Origin: Escherichia coli
Lineage (GTDB): Bacteria; Pseudomonadota; Gammaproteobacteria; Enterobacterales; Enterobacteriaceae
DNA length: 64,000 bases
Assembly (NCBI RefSeq): GCF_044324785.1
Contig: NZ_CP172127.1
Strand: one strand, 5' to 3'
The translations under genes were made by a program, and so were the position numbers. The first letter of the stretch is position 1, and each line of letters starts with the position of its first letter. Shown in pieces: positions 510-10,881 of the stretch. The notes under the pieces are model-generated. The model saw only the letters and a list, made by a program, of their open reading frames with translations, was not told the origin of the DNA and searched no databases.

Positions 510-878
510 GTGGTTTATCCCCTTTTTGCCGCGATTATAAAGGGGATATCCAACAATAACCCCACGACTCATCTCAATTATCTCGTCACGACCAGGCAAA
601 GCCCCAGCCCGGTCTCTTGCAGTCGCGTTCACGCCTGAATGACTTCTCCTGAACTTAAGTCTCAGACCTATTTGGCCGGTAATCCCTCTCAAATTTGCTC
701 ATTTTGCGTTCCGCCTTCCATCAACCTGTAACAGATCCAGCCATTTTCTGCGTAATTGTGATCTCAGTTGTAAAACGCAGATCATTATCTGTGTTTTGCA
801 GATTTAATGTTGACCTCAAAAATCATGTGGGTAAGTATGATGACCATCTAAGCAAAACAAAACACAGAGGATGACGCA

Positions 879-1955
879 ATGAAAGCACTGGCTCGGTTTG
901 GCAAAGCCTTTGGCGGCTACAAGATGATCGATGTGCCACAACCCATTTGTGGCCCGGAAGATGTAGTGATTGAAATTAAAGCCGCGGCAATCTGCGGCGC
1001 AGACATGAAGCACTACAATGTCGATAGCGGTTCTGATGAGTTTAACTCTATCCGCGGCCATGAGTTCGCAGGTTGTATTACGCAGGTTGGTGAAAAAGTC
1101 AAAGACTGGAAAGTGGGGCAACGCGTCGTGTCGGATAACAGCGGTCACGTCTGCGGCGTTTGTCCGGCCTGTGAACAAGGTGATTTTCTGTGTTGTACAG
1201 AAAAAGTAAACCTTGGTCTGGATAACAATACCTGGGGCGGTGGTTTTTCCAAATATTGTCTGGTTCCTGGCGAAATTCTCAAAATTCATCGTCATGCGTT
1301 GTGGGAAATCCCTGATGGTGTTGATTATGAGGACGCAGCCGTACTTGACCCTATCTGTAATGCCTACAAATCCATCGCGCAGCAATCGAAATTCCTTCCT
1401 GGTCAGGATGTGGTCGTCATCGGCACTGGCCCACTCGGGCTGTTCTCCGTACAAATGGCGCGGATTATGGGGGCGGTAAATATCGTCGTCGTTGGTCTGC
1501 AAGAAGATGTGGCGGTCCGCTTTCCGGTTGCAAAAGAACTGGGTGCGACGGCTGTAGTAAATGGTTCTACCGAAGATGTGGTGGCGCGCTGCCAGCAAAT
1601 TTGTGGCAAAGACAATCTGGGACTGGTGATTGAATGCTCCGGTGCCAATATCGCACTGAAACAAGCCATCGAAATGCTCCGCCCGAACGGGGAAGTGGTA
1701 CGCGTTGGAATGGGCTTCAAACCTCTTGATTTCTCGATTAATGACATTACCGCCTGGAACAAAAGCATCATTGGGCATATGGCCTATGACTCCACCTCAT
1801 GGCGTAACGCTCTCCGGCTATTAGCCAGCGGCGCTATCAAAGTCAAACCGATGATCACGCATCGTATCGGCCTGTCGCAATGGCGCGAAGGGTTTGAAGC
1901 GATGGTCGATAAAACCGCAATCAAAGTGATCATGACTTACGACTTTGATGAATAA
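879..1955 (+). CDS. ydjL: Zn-dependent medium-chain alcohol/polyol dehydrogenase YdjL (358 aa)
   Basis: Track ORF; GHEFAG Zn-ligand motif, CGVCPACEQGDFLCC structural-Zn motif, VVVIGTGPLG Rossmann motif. Confidence 0.9.
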   Translation: MKALARFGKAFGGYKMIDVPQPICGPEDVVIEIKAAAICGADMKHYNVDSGSDEFNSIRGHEFAGCITQVGEKVKDWKVGQRVVSDNSGHVCGVCPACEQGDFLCCTEKVNLGLDNNTWGGGFSKYCLVPGEILKIHRHALWEIPDGVDYEDAAVLDPICNAYKSIAQQSKFLPGQDVVVIGTGPLGLFSVQMARIMGAVNIVVVGLQEDVAVRFPVAKELGATAVVNGSTEDVVARCQQICGKDNLGLVIECSGANIALKQAIEMLRPNGEVVRVGMGFKPLDFSINDITAWNKSIIGHMAYDSTSWRNALRLLASGAIKVKPMITHRIGLSQWREGFEAMVDKTAIKVIMTYDFDE

Positions 1956-1981
1956 CTACTCTCCTGAAGGAACGTTATCGC

Positions 1982-3361
1982 ATGGAACAGATAACAAAAC
2001 CGCATTGTGGTGCACGGCTGGATCGCTTACCGGATTGCCGCTGGCATTCGTCAATGTTTGCTATCGTCGCGTTTGGCTTGCTTGTCTGCTGGAGTAATGC
2101 CGTTGGTGGCTTGATCCTCGCGCAGCTGAAAGAGTTGGGCTGGACAGATAATTCCACCACTGCCACATTCTCAGCAATCACGACCGCCGGAATGTTTCTC
2201 GGTGCGCTGGTTGGCGGCATCATCGGTGACAAAACCGGTCGCAGAAATGCGTTCATCCTCTATGAGGCCATTCATATTGCCTCGATGGTGGTCGGTGCTT
2301 TTTCACCGAATATGGATTTCCTTATTGCCTGCCGTTTTGTGATGGGCGTTGGGCTGGGAGCTTTACTGGTGACGCTGTTTGCTGGGTTCACCGAATATAT
2401 GCCCGGTAGAAATCGCGGAACGTGGTCCAGTCGGGTTTCCTTTATTGGCAACTGGTCATATCCGCTCTGTTCATTGATTGCGATGGGACTCACGCCGCTG
2501 ATTAGTGCTGAGTGGAACTGGCGGGTACAACTGCTTATCCCTGCAATATTGTCGCTTATCGCTACGGCGCTGGCCTGGCGCTACTTTCCTGAATCCCCGC
2601 GCTGGCTGGAATCGCGCGGACGGTATCAGGAAGCCGAGAAAGTCATGCGGAGTATAGAAGAAGGCGTCATACGCCAGACGGGTAAACCTTTGCCGCCCGT
2701 GGTTATTGCTGATGACGGTAAAGCGCCACAAGCGGTGCCGTATTCAGCCTTACTGACAGGCGTATTACTGAAACGCGTGATATTAGGTTCTTGTGTGCTG
2801 ATTGCCATGAACGTTGTGCAGTACACACTAATTAACTGGTTGCCAACGATATTCATGACCCAGGGGATTAATTTAAAAGACTCGATTGTTTTAAATACCA
2901 TGAGTATGTTTGGCGCGCCATTTGGTATTTTTATTGCCATGCTGGTGATGGATAAAATTCCGCGTAAAACAATGGGTGTGGGGCTATTAATCCTGATTGC
3001 GGTGCTCGGATATATCTATTCACTGCAAACCAGTATGTTGCTCATAACGTTGATTGGTTTCTTCCTGATTACTTTCGTCTATATGTACGTTTGCTATGCC
3101 TCGGCAGTGTATGTCCCTGAAATCTGGCCGACAGAGGCCAAACTCCGTGGCTCCGGTCTGGCGAATGCGGTAGGGCGAATCAGTGGTATTGCCGCACCTT
3201 ATGCCGTTGCAGTGCTGCTCAGTAGTTATGGCGTAACGGGAGTCTTTATTCTTCTGGGGGCGGTTTCAATTATTGTCGCAATTGCTATCGCCACCATTGG
3301 AATTGAAACCAAAGGTGTCTCCGTTGAAAGTTTAAGTATTGATGCAGTAGTCAATAAATAA
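1982..3361 (+). CDS. ydjK: MFS (sugar-porter-like) transporter YdjK (459 aa)
   Basis: Track ORF; multi-span hydrophobic protein with MFS signature GDKTGRR after TM2. Confidence 0.88.
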   Translation: MEQITKPHCGARLDRLPDCRWHSSMFAIVAFGLLVCWSNAVGGLILAQLKELGWTDNSTTATFSAITTAGMFLGALVGGIIGDKTGRRNAFILYEAIHIASMVVGAFSPNMDFLIACRFVMGVGLGALLVTLFAGFTEYMPGRNRGTWSSRVSFIGNWSYPLCSLIAMGLTPLISAEWNWRVQLLIPAILSLIATALAWRYFPESPRWLESRGRYQEAEKVMRSIEEGVIRQTGKPLPPVVIADDGKAPQAVPYSALLTGVLLKRVILGSCVLIAMNVVQYTLINWLPTIFMTQGINLKDSIVLNTMSMFGAPFGIFIAMLVMDKIPRKTMGVGLLILIAVLGYIYSLQTSMLLITLIGFFLITFVYMYVCYASAVYVPEIWPTEAKLRGSGLANAVGRISGIAAPYAVAVLLSSYGVTGVFILLGAVSIIVAIAIATIGIETKGVSVESLSIDAVVNK

Positions 3362-3377
3362 TACTGGTGGATTCAAA

Positions 3378-4421
3378 ATGAAAAATTCAAAAGCAATATT
3401 GCAGGTGCCGGGCACAATGAAAATTATTTCAGCAGAAATACCTGTGCCTAAAGAAGATGAAGTTTTGATTAAAGTGGAATATGTCGGTATTTGTGGTTCA
3501 GATGTACATGGTTTTGAATCAGGCCCGTTTATTCCGCCTAAAGACCCAAATCAAGAAATTGGCCTGGGACATGAATGCGCCGGGACGGTTGTGGCTGTGG
3601 GAAGCCGTGTGCGCAAATTTAAAGCGGGGGATCGGGTAAATATCGAACCTGGCGTTCCTTGCGGTCACTGTCGTTACTGTCTGGAAGGCAAATATAACAT
3701 CTGCCCGGACGTTGATTTTATGGCGACACAACCTAACTACCGCGGCGCATTAACGCACTATCTGTGTCATCCGGAGAGCTTTACTTACAAACTGCCCGAC
3801 AATATGGACACGATGGAAGGGGCGCTGGTGGAGCCTGCCGCAGTCGGGATGCATGCCGCGATGCTGGCAGATGTTAAACCGGGTAAGAAGATAATTATTC
3901 TGGGAGCGGGTTGTATTGGTTTGATGACGTTGCAAGCGTGCAAATGCCTGGGAGCAACGGAAATTGCCGTCGTTGATGTACTGGAAAAACGTCTGGCAAT
4001 GGCGGAACAGCTTGGTGCGACAGTGGTTATTAACGGCGCAAAAGAAGACACTATTGCACGCTGTCAGCAATTTACCGAAGACATGGGCGAAGATATTGTT
4101 TTCGAAACAGCGGGTTCTGCGGTCACCGTTAAACAGGCACCTTATCTGGTAATGCGCGGCGGTAAAATTATGATTGTTGGTACTGTACCGGGCGATTCGG
4201 CAATCAATTTCCTCAAAATCAATCGCGAAGTCACTATCCAGACAGTATTCCGCTATGCCAATCGTTATCCGGTCACGATTGAAGCTATTTCCACAGGGCG
4301 ATTCGATGTGAAATCGATGGTGACACATATTTACGATTATCAGGATGTACAACAGGCATTTGAAGAGTCGGTTAACAACAAACGCGACATTATTAAAGGC
4401 GTTATTAAAATTAGCGATTAA
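3378..4421 (+). CDS. ydjJ: Zn-dependent sorbitol/threonine-dehydrogenase-like oxidoreductase YdjJ (347 aa)
   Basis: Track ORF; GICGSDVHGF, GHECAG and CGHCRYCLEGKYNIC Zn-ADH motifs. Confidence 0.9.
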   Translation: MKNSKAILQVPGTMKIISAEIPVPKEDEVLIKVEYVGICGSDVHGFESGPFIPPKDPNQEIGLGHECAGTVVAVGSRVRKFKAGDRVNIEPGVPCGHCRYCLEGKYNICPDVDFMATQPNYRGALTHYLCHPESFTYKLPDNMDTMEGALVEPAAVGMHAAMLADVKPGKKIIILGAGCIGLMTLQACKCLGATEIAVVDVLEKRLAMAEQLGATVVINGAKEDTIARCQQFTEDMGEDIVFETAGSAVTVKQAPYLVMRGGKIMIVGTVPGDSAINFLKINREVTIQTVFRYANRYPVTIEAISTGRFDVKSMVTHIYDYQDVQQAFEESVNNKRDIIKGVIKISD

Positions 4422-4441
4422 TTAATACGGGAGAACAGAAT

Positions 4442-5278
4442 ATGCTCGCAGATATCAGATATTGGGAAAACGATGCCACAAATAAACATTATGCAATTGC
4501 CCATTTTAACGTATGGAATGCAGAAATGTTGATGGGCGTTATCGACGCAGCCGAAGAAGCGAAATCACCGGTTATTATTTCTTTTGGTACAGGTTTTGTC
4601 GGCAACACCTCATTTGAAGATTTCTCTCACATGATGGTATCAATGGCACAAAAAGCAACGGTGCCGGTAATAACTCATTGGGATCATGGTCGGAGTATGG
4701 AGATTATTCATAACGCCTGGACTCATGGTATGAATTCATTAATGCGTGATGCTTCCGCGTTTGATTTCGAAGAAAATATTCGTTTAACCAAAGAGGCTGT
4801 TGATTTTTTCCATCCGCTGGGTATTCCGGTAGAGGCGGAATTAGGGCATGTCGGTAATGAAACCGTTTATGAGGAAGCTCTGGCGGGCTATCACTATACC
4901 GATCCTGACCAGGCGGCTGAATTTGTTGAACGTACGGGCTGTGACTCATTGGCTGTCGCCATCGGCAACCAGCATGGGGTTTATACGTCAGAGCCACAAT
5001 TGAACTTTGAGGTCGTCAAACGCGTACGCGATGCCGTTTCTGTTCCGCTGGTTTTGCACGGTGCATCGGGGATCAGTGATGCCGACATTAAAACTGCAAT
5101 TTCGTTGGGTATCGCGAAAATCAACATTCATACGGAGCTCTGTCAGGCCGCAATGGTAACAGTGAAAGAAAACCAGGATCAGCCTTTCCTGCATTTAGAA
5201 CGTGAAGTACGTAAAGCTGTAAAAGAACGGGCATTGGAAAAAATTAAACTGTTCGGTTCTGATGGCAAAGCGGAATAA
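4442..5278 (+). CDS. ydjI: Class II (metal-dependent) fructose-bisphosphate-aldolase-family aldolase YdjI (278 aa)
   Basis: Track ORF; class II FBA/tagatose-bisphosphate aldolase fold motifs (HxDHG, HGASG). Confidence 0.88.
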   Translation: MLADIRYWENDATNKHYAIAHFNVWNAEMLMGVIDAAEEAKSPVIISFGTGFVGNTSFEDFSHMMVSMAQKATVPVITHWDHGRSMEIIHNAWTHGMNSLMRDASAFDFEENIRLTKEAVDFFHPLGIPVEAELGHVGNETVYEEALAGYHYTDPDQAAEFVERTGCDSLAVAIGNQHGVYTSEPQLNFEVVKRVRDAVSVPLVLHGASGISDADIKTAISLGIAKINIHTELCQAAMVTVKENQDQPFLHLEREVRKAVKERALEKIKLFGSDGKAE

Positions 5279-5282
5279 TGAT

Positions 5283-6230
5283 ATGGATAATCTCGACGTT
5301 ATTTGTATAGGTGCCGCTATTGTTGATATTCCATTGCAACCGGTCAGTAAAAATATCTTTGATGTGGATTCTTATCCTCTTGAAAGAATCGCAATGACCA
5401 CCGGGGGTGATGCAATAAATGAAGCAACAATTATTTCTCGTCTGGGCCATCGCACAGCATTAATGAGTCGTATTGGTAAAGATGCCGCCGGGCAATTTAT
5501 TCTCGACCATTGCCGCAAAGAGAATATTGATATTCAAAACCTGAAGCAGGACGTCAGCATAGATACCTCTATTAACGTTGGACTGGTGACGGAGGATGGC
5601 GAGCGGACGTTTGTTACAAACCGTAACGGCAGTCTGTGGAAATTGAATATTGACGATGTTGATTTTTCGCGGTTTTCTCAGGCGAAATTATTATCACTGG
5701 CCAGTATTTTCAACAGTCCTCTATTGGATGGTAAAGCGCTAACAGAAATTTTTACGCAAGCTAAAGCCCGGCAGATGATTATCTGTGCCGATATGATCAA
5801 ACCGCGGTTGAATGAAACGCTGGATGATATTTGCGAAGCATTGAGTTATGTCGATTATCTGTTTCCTAATTTTGCCGAGGCAAAATTACTCACCGGGAAA
5901 GAGACACTGGATGAAATTGCTGACTGCTTTCTTGCGTGCGGCGTAAAAACGGTGGTGATTAAAACGGGTAAAGACGGCTGCTTTATCAAGCGTGGTGACA
6001 TGACGATGAAGGTGCCGGCGGTCGCAGGAATAACCGCCATCGACACTATTGGCGCAGGCGATAACTTTGCTTCTGGCTTTATAGCGGCTCTGTTAGAAGG
6101 CAAAAATCTGCGTGAATGCGCACGCTTTGCCAATGCAACGGCTGCTATTTCGGTTTTAAGCGTCGGTGCCACCACCGGTGTAAAAAACAGAAAGCTGGTC
6201 GAACAATTGCTGGAAGAATACGAAGGATAA
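5283..6230 (+). CDS. ydjH: PfkB/ribokinase-family sugar kinase YdjH (315 aa)
   Basis: Track ORF 5262..6230; start placed at ATG 5283 (MDNLDVICIGAAIVD...); C-terminal GAGD anion-hole motif typical of PfkB kinases. Confidence 0.88.
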   Translation: MDNLDVICIGAAIVDIPLQPVSKNIFDVDSYPLERIAMTTGGDAINEATIISRLGHRTALMSRIGKDAAGQFILDHCRKENIDIQNLKQDVSIDTSINVGLVTEDGERTFVTNRNGSLWKLNIDDVDFSRFSQAKLLSLASIFNSPLLDGKALTEIFTQAKARQMIICADMIKPRLNETLDDICEALSYVDYLFPNFAEAKLLTGKETLDEIADCFLACGVKTVVIKTGKDGCFIKRGDMTMKVPAVAGITAIDTIGAGDNFASGFIAALLEGKNLRECARFANATAAISVLSVGATTGVKNRKLVEQLLEEYEG

Positions 6231-6239
6231 TGAAGGCAA

Positions 6240-7220
6240 ATGAAAAAGATACCTTTAGGCACAACGGATATAACGCTTTCGCGAATGGGGTTGGGGACAT
6301 GGGCCATTGGCGGCGGTCCTGCATGGAATGGCGATCTCGATCGGCAAATATGTATTGATACGATTCTTGAAGCCCATCGTTGCGGCATTAACCTGATTGA
6401 TACTGCGCCAGGATATAACTTTGGCAATAGTGAAGTTATCGTCGGTCAGGCGTTAAAAAAACTGCCCCGTGAACAGGTTGTAGTAGAAACCAAATGCGGC
6501 ATTGTCTGGGAACGAAAAGGGAGTTTATTCAACAAAGTTGGCGATCGGCAGTTGTATAAAAACCTTTCCCCGGAATCTATCCGCGAAGAGGTAGAAGCCA
6601 GCTTGCAACGTCTGGGTATTGATTACATCGATATCTACATGACGCACTGGCAGTCGGTGCCGCCATTTTTTACGCCGATCGCTGAAACTGTCGCAGTGCT
6701 CAATGAGTTAAAGGCCGAAGGGAAAATTCGCGCTATCGGCGCTGCTAACGTCGATGCTGACCATATCCGCGAGTATCTGCAATATGGTGAACTGGATATT
6801 ATTCAGGCGAAATACAGTATCCTCGACCGGGCAATGGAAAGCGAACTGCTGCCGCTATGTCGTGATAATGGCATTGTGGTTCAGGTTTATTCCCCGCTAG
6901 AGCAGGGATTGTTGACCGGTACCATCACTCGTGATTACGTTCCGGGCGGCGCTCGGGCAAATAAAGTCTGGTTCCAGCGTGAAAACATGCTGAAAGTGAT
7001 TGATATGCTTGAACAGTGGCAGCCACTCTGTGCTCGTTATCAGTGCACAATTCCCACTCTGGCACTGGCGTGGATATTAAAACAGAGTGATTTAATCTCC
7101 ATTCTTAGTGGGGCTACTGCACCGGAACAGGTACGCGAAAATGTCGCGGCATTGAATATCAACTTATCGGATGCAGACGCAACATTGATGAGGGAAATGG
7201 CAGAGGCCCTGGAGCGTTAA
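6240..7220 (+). CDS. ydjG: Aldo-keto reductase YdjG (326 aa)
   Basis: Track ORF; AKR family signature (LIDTAPGY, catalytic tetrad context). Confidence 0.88.
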   Translation: MKKIPLGTTDITLSRMGLGTWAIGGGPAWNGDLDRQICIDTILEAHRCGINLIDTAPGYNFGNSEVIVGQALKKLPREQVVVETKCGIVWERKGSLFNKVGDRQLYKNLSPESIREEVEASLQRLGIDYIDIYMTHWQSVPPFFTPIAETVAVLNELKAEGKIRAIGAANVDADHIREYLQYGELDIIQAKYSILDRAMESELLPLCRDNGIVVQVYSPLEQGLLTGTITRDYVPGGARANKVWFQRENMLKVIDMLEQWQPLCARYQCTIPTLALAWILKQSDLISILSGATAPEQVRENVAALNINLSDADATLMREMAEALER

Positions 7221-7356
7221 ATACTCAACACGATTCACCTCTGTTTCTGTGAAAACTGTGATGAAAATCTGTGATTCAAACAGGTTATTTTGAAAGTAAA
7301 CATCGGTTATGCGATAATCGCGCTAATGTGATGTAAAAAGATACAGGGGTGTAATC

Positions 7357-8115
7357 GTGGCGGCAAAAGACAGGATTCAGGCAATTAAGCAAATGGTTGC
7401 CAACGATAAAAAGGTGACAGTCTCAAATTTGAGTGGGATTTTTCAAGTAACCGAAGAAACCATTCGCCGCGATCTTGAGAAGCTGGAAGATGAAGGCTTT
7501 TTGACCAGAACCTATGGTGGTGCTGTTTTAAATACAGCGATGTTGACGGAGAATATCCATTTTTATAAGCGCGCTTCATCGTTTTATGAAGAGAAGCAGC
7601 TTATTGCACGCAAGGCACTACCCTTTATCGACAATAAAACCACTATGGCAGCCGATTCCAGTAGTACCGTTATGGAATTGCTCAAATTGTTGCAGGACCG
7701 TAGTGACCTGACGTTGCTAACCAACTCGGCGGAAGCGATTCATGTTCTGGCTCAATCAGAAATTAAAGTCGTTTCAACGGGGGGGGAACTAAACAAAAAT
7801 ACACTTTCCCTGCAAGGAAGAATTACTAAAGAGATCATCAGCCGCTACCATGTCGATATCATGGTAATGAGTTGTAAAGGTCTTGATATTAACAGCGGCG
7901 CGCTGGACTCTAACGAAGCGGAAGCTGAAATCAAAAAGACAATGATCCGTCAGGCGACAGAAGTTGCGTTATTGGTTGATCACTCTAAGTTTGATCGCAA
8001 AGCTTTTGTCCAGTTAGCTGACTTTAGTCATATTAATTACATAATAACTGATAAATCACCGGGTGCAGAGTGGATAGCATTTTGCAAAGACAATAATATC
8101 CAGCTGGTGTGGTAA
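7357..8115 (+). CDS. ydjF: DeoR-family transcriptional regulator YdjF (252 aa, GTG start)
   Basis: Track ORF; N-terminal HTH (VTVSNLSGIFQVTEETIRRDLEKLE) and C-terminal DeoR sugar-phosphate-binding domain; GTG at 7357. Confidence 0.88.
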   Translation: MAAKDRIQAIKQMVANDKKVTVSNLSGIFQVTEETIRRDLEKLEDEGFLTRTYGGAVLNTAMLTENIHFYKRASSFYEEKQLIARKALPFIDNKTTMAADSSSTVMELLKLLQDRSDLTLLTNSAEAIHVLAQSEIKVVSTGGELNKNTLSLQGRITKEIISRYHVDIMVMSCKGLDINSGALDSNEAEAEIKKTMIRQATEVALLVDHSKFDRKAFVQLADFSHINYIITDKSPGAEWIAFCKDNNIQLVW

Positions 8116-9510
8116 TTTAAGCACACGTTGTCAATATTATTTGTTCCTGCGCCTGGAAATAAAATGATGATAAAGATGCGGCAAGTGAATTTGCCGCAAT
8201 TGCTACCTTTTTAGCAAATCCGAGGCACCTAATGGAACAATATGATCAAATTGGCGCAAGACTGGACCGCTTGCCTTTGGCCCGGTTTCATTATCGTATA
8301 TTTGGTATTATAAGCTTTAGTCTGTTATTAACGGGTTTTTTGAGTTATTCAGGCAATGTTGTTTTAGCAAAGCTGGTAAGCAATGGATGGTCAAATAATT
8401 TCCTCAATGCCGCCTTTACCTCGGCATTAATGTTTGGTTATTTCATCGGCTCTCTTACCGGTGGGTTCATCGGTGATTATTTTGGGCGGCGCAGGGCTTT
8501 TCGCATAAATCTTCTCATCGTCGGTATTGCGGCAACAGGGGCCGCTTTTGTCCCTGATATGTACTGGCTCATCTTCTTTCGCTTCCTGATGGGCACAGGA
8601 ATGGGGGCGCTGATTATGGTTGGCTATGCTTCGTTTACGGAGTTTATCCCCGCGACGGTGCGTGGAAAATGGTCCGCGCGGCTCTCATTTGTCGGTAACT
8701 GGTCGCCCATGTTGTCTGCGGCGATAGGCGTGGTGGTTATCGCTTTTTTTAGTTGGCGGATAATGTTTCTGCTGGGTGGTATTGGCATACTGTTAGCCTG
8801 GTTTCTCTCAGGTAAATACTTTATTGAGTCGCCTCGATGGTTGGCGGGGAAAGGACAAATCGCAGGTGCAGAAAGCCAACTTCGTGAAGTAGAGCAGCAA
8901 ATTGAAAGAGAGAAGAGTGTTCGTTTACCCCCGCTTACTTTGAATCAGAGCAACAGCAAGGCTAACATAATCAATGGTACTTTCTGGCTGCTGTTTAAAG
9001 GGAAAATGTTACGACGTACATTAGTCGCGATTACTGTTTTAATTGCAATGAACATTTCACTTTATACCATCACCGTATGGATACCGACCATATTTGTTAA
9101 CTCCGGCATTGATGTCGATAAATCAATATTAATGACTGCTGTTATTATGATTGGTGCTCCGGTAGGAATATTTATTGCGGCATTAATTATTGATCATTTT
9201 CCTCGTCGATTATTTGGCTCCGCCTTACTTATTATTATTGCCGTGTTAGGCTATATCTATTCAATTCAGACTACAGAGTGGGCGATTTTAATCTATGGCC
9301 TGGTGATGATCTTCTTTTTATACATGTATGTTTGCTTCGCGTCGGCGGTTTATATCCCGGAGCTTTGGCCAACGCATTTACGCCTGCGCGGTTCAGGTTT
9401 CGTTAATGCCGTCGGACGGATCGTCGCGGTCTTCACGCCTTATGGCGTTGCGGCACTATTAACGCATTATGGGTCAATCACGGTGTTTATAGTGCTTGGC
9501 GTGATGTTAG

Positions 9511-10705
<1,195 letters not shown>

Positions 10706-10839
10706 TTAGTGCTCTGTGCGCTGGTTCTCTCCATTTTTGGCATCGAAACGCGGAAGGTGTCATTGGAAGAGATTTCTGAGGTGAATTAAATCTTTCGTTG
10801 ATGGCGTCAATTGCCAGAGGTACCACTGACGTGTTTTAT

Positions 10840-10874
10840 CTGGCCTACAATGGCAGTACAGAATTGTAGGCCAG
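10840..10874. terminator. Perfect 12-bp inverted repeat (CTGGCCTACAAT / ATTGTAGGCCAG, 11-nt loop) between the convergent ydjE and pncA 3' ends; probable bidirectional terminator
   Basis: Read directly from sequence; no clean U-tract on either side, so terminator function is inferred. Confidence 0.5.
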
Positions 10875-10881
10875 CATAAAA

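Follow-up and report, generated by a model that had tools for sequence, protein, structure and literature searches.

We found that the convergent gap between ydjE and ansA-pncA in this Escherichia coli strain holds a hairpin that is probably a two-way transcript boundary derived from a REP element, lacking a U-tract, leaky on the pncA side and backed up there by Rho. The hairpin is real, native and conserved, and it is already known, because published lists include it both under REP132 and among the mapped bidirectional terminators. Positions refer to the window, the whole stretch of 64,000 nucleotides that was analysed, unless they are given as MG1655 coordinates (Table 1). The sequence, the fold, the conservation and the relationship to REP elements were established here, while the overlap of 3′ ends and the Rho data are taken from the literature and all concern K-12 MG1655; from there on, we infer the mechanism and the behaviour of the element in the present strain.

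The core of the element is a perfect 12-bp inverted repeat, CTGGCCTACAAT (10840-10851) and ATTGTAGGCCAG (10863-10874), whose arms are 100% complementary and enclose an 11-nt loop, GGCAGTACAGA (10852-10862). An earlier sequence-only reading of this region had described such a stem with an N11 loop and had placed it between the ydjE stop (TAA, 10787-10789) and the pncA stop (10882-10884, TTA on the + strand); the sequence and the folding of both strands confirm the stem, and the position is right. The folding free energies, which that reading had proposed to calculate, correspond to a stable stem-loop on either strand: -18.8 kcal/mol (+ strand) and -17.6 kcal/mol (- strand) for the 35-nt core, with z = -5.2 and -4.9, and -29 and -23.5 kcal/mol for the hairpin in a 71-nt context. 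In a context of 111 nt, the 12 stem pairs reach a mean pairing probability of 0.986 on both strands. Half of the stem pairs are GC (6/12, 50%) and the loop has 11 nt, and the hairpin is stable at -18 kcal/mol. The convergent gap measures 92 nt and the hairpin lies inside it, hence it is extragenic.

Perfect inverted repeats of at least 12 bp with a loop of 3-20 nt occur twice in the window, compared to 0.125 expected from 40 first-order Markov simulations, and the arm word of the hairpin is found a single time in the whole window. The sole other perfect 12-bp short-loop repeat, AACCAGGGGCAG-8 nt-CTGCCCCTGGTT at 53114-53145, directly follows the - strand ORF 53147-53815, has a moderately T-rich tail on that strand and is probably an ordinary terminator. 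A 10-bp hairpin, TATCCCCTTT...AAAGGGGATA, is located at 516-548, directly after the yeaC stop codon.

Table 1. Features of the ydjE/pncA convergent gap and its surroundings, in window coordinates
Feature	Position	Strand	Description
IS5	9511..10705	+	1195 bp; ins5A 9543-10559; inserted in ydjE codon ~427; strain-specific
ydjE displaced 3′ remnant	10706..10789	+	cut off from its promoter by IS5
C-rich Rut-equivalent stretch	10706..10828	-	C/G 1.48; equivalent of the K-12 H-SELEX Rut peaks
REP132 homologue	10812..10847	-	degenerate palindromic unit; MG1655 1852563-1852598; head = left arm of the hairpin; left arm and upstream flank TGCCAGAGGTACCACTGACGTGTTTTATCTGGCCTA
Extended palindrome	10834..10881	none	TTTTAT + arm ... 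arm + C bulge + ATAAAA = 18 pairs
Row 151 region, window equivalent	10837..10877	none	MG1655 1852533-1852573; coincides exactly with the hairpin
Core hairpin	10840..10874	none	12-bp arms and 11-nt loop; REP head (CTAC / GTAG) in each arm
Orphan second REP head	10863..10881	+	TTGTAGGCCAG-C-ATAAAA; inverted copy of the first ~16 nt of REP132
pncA	10882..11523	-	last gene of ansA-pncA; stop codon 7 nt from the hairpin

With its flanks, the hairpin extends to a 48-nt palindrome of -22.1 and -20.9 kcal/mol on the two strands. On both strands the stem is preceded by U-runs and followed by A-runs, which is the reverse of an intrinsic terminator. The 3′ tail is CATAAAATTA on the + strand (3 T in 10) and ATAAAACACG on the - strand (1 T in 10), and neither this composition nor the published U counts of 1 and 1 reveal a U-tract 3′ of the stem on either strand. 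Accordingly, the hairpin is not a canonical intrinsic terminator. Furthermore, a consensus terminator scan of the region did not call the hairpin; the scanner accepts loops of 3-8 nt and the loop of the hairpin has 11 nt.

The 3′ ends of transcripts have been mapped at this locus in K-12. The supplement of Harris et al. 2026 (bioRxiv 10.64898/2026.03.23.713779) reprints a list of 306 bidirectional terminators mapped by sequencing, and row 151 of this table is an overlapping region of 41 nt, UACGCUGGCCUACAAUUCUGUACUGGCAUUGUAGGCCAAAUA, at -18 kcal/mol, with the flanks UUUUACGC and AAUAAAAC and a U count of 1 on each side. The row is labelled 'gene_convergent_transcription' and 'gap_region', covers both log and stationary phase, gives ydjE:pncA:ansA as the affected genes and records a 10-nt overlap with REP132. 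Judged by its format, this table is most likely the SEnd-seq set of Ju, Li & Liu 2019. We converted the coordinates (window = 10882 + 1852528 - MG1655 position, with the sequence checked against MG1655) and found that the 3′ ends of the two convergent K-12 transcripts fall about 3 nt past the base of the stem. The sequence-only reading had taken the hairpin for the native bidirectional terminator of the convergent ydjE and pncA-ansA transcripts, a proposal that depended on 3′ ends mapping at the hairpin, and the K-12 ends of both strands do map there. The two-way role therefore stands, whereas the REP origin with the overlap with REP132, the missing U-tract and the Rho back-up on the pncA side had been overlooked. 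In the part of the Adams et al. 2021 Term-seq supplement consulted, no 3′ end is placed at the hairpin and pncA is not listed.

The laboratory to which the table of 306 terminators is attributed described this terminator class as unlike intrinsic terminators and Rho-independent, and modelled the hairpin as a pause site that positions head-on collisions of polymerases, with the trailing polymerases completing the release (Wang et al. 2022 preprint). The SEnd-seq authors report that the hairpin element positions polymerase collisions in vitro. Under the collision model, the hairpin is probably inefficient in the absence of convergent traffic. The likeness of the present element to the bidirectional terminators attributed to Ju, Li & Liu 2019 is direct, because row 151 has the same sequence bar strain SNPs, and it includes the hairpin in the overlap region, the convergent gap and the absence of a U-tract. 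However, the class is described as Rho-independent whereas Rho signals are found here directly downstream on one strand, and in the present strain the ydjE partner is interrupted by IS5, which alters the convergent traffic from that side.

REP132 is annotated between ydjE and pncA in MG1655 (Harris et al. 2026 supplement, bioRxiv 10.64898/2026.03.23.713779), while the MG1655 RefSeq copy examined shows no REP features. Around 60% of REPs are located between convergent genes, and a REP unit is an imperfect palindrome of some 35-40 nt with a stem-loop of its own. Each arm of the hairpin carries one REP head (CTAC 10846-10849, GTAG 10866-10869). The own closing stem of REP132 pairs GCCAGA (10813-18) with TCTGGC (10839-44) over 6 bp, has weak inner pairs and a predicted equilibrium occupancy of about 0, as the left arm prefers its 12-bp partner; across the nine sequences aligned below, 92.6% of its pairs are kept, without compensatory change. 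With an 8-unit nhmmer REP profile, the REP132 region scores E = 0.15, fourth in the window, and MG1655 1852560-1852600 scores E = 1; the true REPs in the window (19589-19689, 40042-40078) score about 1e-6 to 5e-5 with the same profile. The Rfam search of the region returned sub-threshold matches only, consisting of chance miRNA-shaped hairpins and a weak naRNA4/REP325-like match, in which the Z-type hairpin of naRNA4 (REP325-derived) aligned at 10779-10845 with 22.8 bits, below the gathering threshold of 59.5. REP132 is thus a strongly degenerate unit whose main recognisable feature is the GTAG head. The profile scores (E 0.15 to 1) give the REP assignment little strength, and its main basis is the annotation of K-12 together with the head motif. 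As for the other REPs in the window, the segment at 19589-19689 is a two-unit head-to-head BIME, homologue of K-12 REP131 between gdhA and ynjI, with the arrangement GGCCTACA-linker-TTGTAGG, and the one at 40042-40078 is a single Y-type REP unit.

BIMEs are normally laid out as head-to-head pairs of units with a short linker between them. In the ydjE-pncA gap, there is no REP body behind the second head, because the pncA stop codon starts at 10882. A BIME is defined by at least two complete alternating PUs, and what we found is one degenerate PU with a head fragment of 16-18 nt; the hairpin is presumably the surviving centre of a decayed head-to-head BIME. Since transcription of the right arm leaves the annotated stem of REP132 with a predicted occupancy close to zero, the relevant structure is the pairing of head with head. 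On the predicted folds, the functional stem would consist of the REP132 head and the unannotated orphan head, and not of the annotated palindrome, which is the sole nuance that our analysis adds. The element has in common with K-12 REP132 the ydjE/pncA locus, the GTAG/CTAC head, the convergent extragenic site and the head-to-head BIME-type layout, but its predicted functional hairpin is not the palindrome of REP132 itself, and only ~8-11 nt of this hairpin are inside the annotation. A REP origin of the pncA C-terminus was also considered and rejected, the C-terminal coding sequence being conserved across genera with different downstream elements.

The 86-bp hairpin region is present once per genome in 5333 of the 5426 complete E. 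coli genomes. In strain N3, which is the closest genome (99.8% over 6 kb) and IS-free, the hairpin is identical. This is also the empty-site comparison that the sequence-only reading had called for, as ydjE is continuous in N3 and TTAG stands only once where IS5 is inserted in the window. The identical hairpin in N3, together with its presence in nearly all E. coli, indicates that the element is native and was not made by IS5. Over positions 10706-16700, N3 is the only complete E. coli genome at least 99% identical to the window, all others being 95-99% identical, and the window therefore comes from a sparsely sampled lineage.

The ydjLKJIHGFE block (~510-10790, from the yeaC stop to the ydjE stop) is a presence/absence polymorphism. 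Around 1000 of the 5426 complete genomes are without it, and in these yeaC adjoins pncA with an unrelated filler of ~95 nt and a diverged REP132/hairpin segment, where the arms CTGGCCTACA...TGTAGGCCAG are kept and the loop and flanks are different. The possibility that the hairpin forms the boundary of this polymorphism was rejected: the homology between haplotypes runs through REP132 to about the ydjE stop, so that the hairpin lies inside the shared segment.

For conservation, an alignment of nine sequences was used, comprising the window, MG1655, four other ydj+ strains (B2 included), two ydj-less strains and E. whittamii. All nine of these Escherichia sequences share identical arms, TGGCCTACAA / TGTAGGCCAG, and the loop, the flanks and the REP132 body vary, with the first G of the REP132 stem replaced by A in the B2 strains LF82 and EC958. 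The MG1655 stem differs from that of the window by one base, a T at the outermost pair. The ydj+ and ydj- haplotypes are 82% identical over the 51 bases aligned (10824-10874), and all of the mismatches (9/9) fall outside the arms, for which we calculate a chance of about 0.003; the adjacent intergenic bases diverge by ~18% between the same haplotypes. No compensatory substitution was found in the 12-bp stem among the nine sequences, and selection on the RNA structure is therefore inseparable from selection on the sequence of the REP heads. Accordingly, sequence-level constraint on the REP heads, or low divergence, could account for the conservation of the arms as an alternative to selection on structure. 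One apparently compensatory pair in the outer extension helix was distrusted, because it spans an 11-nt insertion of the ydj-less haplotype.

Scanning the genomes of 100,044 species for CTGGCCTACA-N8-20-TGTAGGCCAG identified only 10 loci, against our own estimate of ~3-4 expected by chance, which led us to reject a separate high-copy family with these exact arms. The enterobacterial loci among the 10 are only those of E. whittamii (same locus) and Citrobacter sp. NCU1 (other locus). In the latter (L015, 2747-2779), the arms CTGGCCTACAA / TTGTAGGCCAG form a hairpin with REP-like flanks in another convergent gap, between genes for an AraC-like regulator and a caiA-like acyl-CoA dehydrogenase.

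Other lineages carry different elements at the position 3′ of pncA. Enterobacter mori has an intact two-unit head-to-head BIME directly after pncA, ...CCCGGCCTAC-CTTTCCCC-GTAGGCCGGG..., of -43 kcal/mol, and a Citrobacter strain has a single REP unit there. In E. fergusonii (L024, 2143-2200), pncA is followed by an unrelated GC hairpin and then a T-run. This terminator of canonical type resembles the E. coli element in its position after pncA and in its presumed job, but the latter is REP-derived, lacks a U-tract and has a long loop. Two metagenome-derived relatives have unrelated hairpins 3′ of pncA, and in one of the two an HNH-domain gene is inserted between pncA and yeaC.

Rho signals are found in K-12 just beyond the hairpin on the pncA-sense strand. 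H-SELEX, a method of Delaleau et al. 2022, gave Rut peaks at MG1655 1852582-1852713 (without NusG) and 1852588-1852716 (with NusG), and these peaks overlap a bicyclomycin-sensitive transcript at 1852678-1855262, according to the rows listed from the Harris et al. 2026 supplement (bioRxiv 10.64898/2026.03.23.713779). Adams et al. 2021 report Rho termination antisense to ydjE, in a region at 1852976 (+) that has a Rho score of 4.05 and p = 1.5e-5. Collectively, these signals beyond the hairpin indicate that some ansA-pncA transcription passes it, and thus that it is leaky. Downstream of the hairpin the C/G ratio is 1.45-1.48 on both strands, and the rows listed from the Harris et al. supplement contain no Rut peak on the ydjE-sense strand near REP132. 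Adams et al. 2021 note that exonucleases shorten RNAs terminated by Rho, and some of the mapped 3′ ends may come from read-through RNAs trimmed in this way as far as the hairpin. The class is called Rho-independent by the SEnd-seq authors, whereas three data sets place Rho activity just downstream of this member.

In the reading that we favour, the conserved centre of a decayed REP/BIME, made of REP132 and the orphan inverted head, would fold into a stable stem-loop of about -18 to -29 kcal/mol, without a U-tract, whichever strand of the ydjE / ansA-pncA gap is transcribed, and this stem-loop would determine where the two transcripts end, a few nucleotides beyond its base. RNA polymerase would be paused at the hairpin, so that converging polymerases would collide at a defined spot and be released there, and the hairpin would also block 3′-to-5′ exonucleases, with the consequence that transcripts ending further downstream would be trimmed back to it. 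Transcription escaping past the hairpin on the pncA side would expose the C-rich Rho-loading site and would be terminated by Rho inside antisense ydjE. IS5 landed 134 bp away, inside this Rho zone, and left the hairpin identical to the empty-site allele.

The stabilisation of mRNA is the classic role of REP elements, and it is conceivable, although unlikely, that no termination takes place at the hairpin, with Rho ending transcription downstream, the hairpin only stopping 3′-to-5′ exonucleases and the mapped ends being processing products. The Rut peak, the bicyclomycin-sensitive transcript and the Rho region just downstream on the pncA-sense strand speak for this explanation, and so does the C/G ratio downstream of the hairpin on both strands; the exonuclease trimming noted by Adams et al. 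2021 and the action of REP325 as an mRNA stabiliser (Harris et al. 2026, bioRxiv 10.64898/2026.03.23.713779) supply the processing step. However, the SEnd-seq authors report the class to be Rho-independent and find that the hairpin positions collisions in vitro, and the rows listed include no Rut peak near REP132 on the strand of ydjE. The classical bidirectional intrinsic terminator, in which the hairpin and a U-tract release the polymerase on each strand with no other factors, has in its favour a stable hairpin in a convergent gap that is listed as a bidirectional terminator. We nevertheless regard it as very improbable: the U-tract is missing 3′ of the stem on both strands (U counts of 1 and 1), with the U-runs placed 5′ of it instead, a loop of 11 nt is long and a GC share of 50% is low for such a stem, no call came from the consensus scan, and in K-12 Rho-dependent read-through continues beyond the hairpin.

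Conservation bears on the two remaining explanations. The element may be a neutral relic of selfish REP/BIME DNA, or a DNA site for a REP-binding protein, with incidental effects on transcripts; we give this the least credence of all the explanations, even if the body of REP132 is decaying (G to A in the B2 strains, poor score with the profile), other lineages have unrelated hairpins in the place behind pncA and the stem lacks compensatory substitutions. A relic would not be expected to keep invariant arms while the neighbouring intergenic bases diverge by ~18% between haplotypes, nor to be retained in 5333/5426 genomes, including those that lost the whole ydj block, and the mapped 3′ ends coincide with the hairpin. 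The 'double REP-head' stem (CTGGCCTACAA...TTGTAGGCCAG) would, in a last explanation that we hold to be improbable, be a distinct selected mini-element and not a decaying BIME, that is, a two-way boundary without a U-tract recurring independently in convergent gaps. The same arms occur between the AraC-like and caiA-like genes of Citrobacter sp. NCU1, and such an element might be spread or maintained via a REP-associated transposase acting on GTAG heads.

Among the REP elements with a described role, REP325 (yjdM-yjdN) limits read-through, partly via Rho, and stabilises mRNA (Harris et al. 2026, bioRxiv 10.64898/2026.03.23.713779). Like the present element it is a REP-derived 3′-UTR hairpin, both a limiter of read-through and a possible protector of upstream mRNA, and the two figure in the same study, REP132 in its overlap tables. 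In contrast, REP325 is an array of 12 hairpins between tandem genes, and the present element is a single hairpin of one-and-a-fraction units between convergent genes. The locus exemplifies a decayed REP that bounds two convergent operons at their 3′ ends, with no U-tract and with Rho back-up on one side, and it matters little beyond correct annotation.

IS5 neither created nor damaged the hairpin; it cut ydjE off, and it sits in the Rho zone of the pncA read-through. The insertion is flanked by the target duplication TTAG (9507-9510 and 10706-10709) and ends 134 nt from the hairpin stem. IS5 at this ydjE site is absent from all 5426 complete E. coli genomes, and in A10, the one genome covering the whole query, IS5 sits between ydjF and ydjE. 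The last ~9 nt of the K-12 Rut peak have been replaced by IS5, the Rut stretch being otherwise almost intact, and further on, where K-12 has its termination zone, the present strain has IS5 sequence antisense to ins5A, with a C/G ratio of 1.07. The K-12 Rho region at 1852976 converts to window position ~9239, on the far side of IS5 in the present strain, so that IS5 now stands between the Rut stretch and the zone in which termination usually occurs.

The sequence-only reading had also pointed out that + strand transcription reading out of the IS5 right end would meet the hairpin before entering pncA antisense, and this geometry is correct. A consensus promoter scan identified no outward promoter at the IS5 right end. 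On its own, the hairpin would, according to the collision model, mainly pause such read-out, and blocking would depend on convergent pncA traffic; in K-12, pncA is ~20-fold more expressed than ydjE (base means 1083 vs 57; bioRxiv 10.64898/2026.03.23.713779). Any effect of IS5 on pncA antisense transcription, or on its own expression, would run through a known element. As for ydjE, it is truncated after ~426 codons, the shortened ORF having its stop at 9531-9533, and the ATG of ins5A (9543) lies 10 nt downstream on the same strand. The ydjE transcript would now enter IS5, and the ydjE promoter could feed transposase expression.
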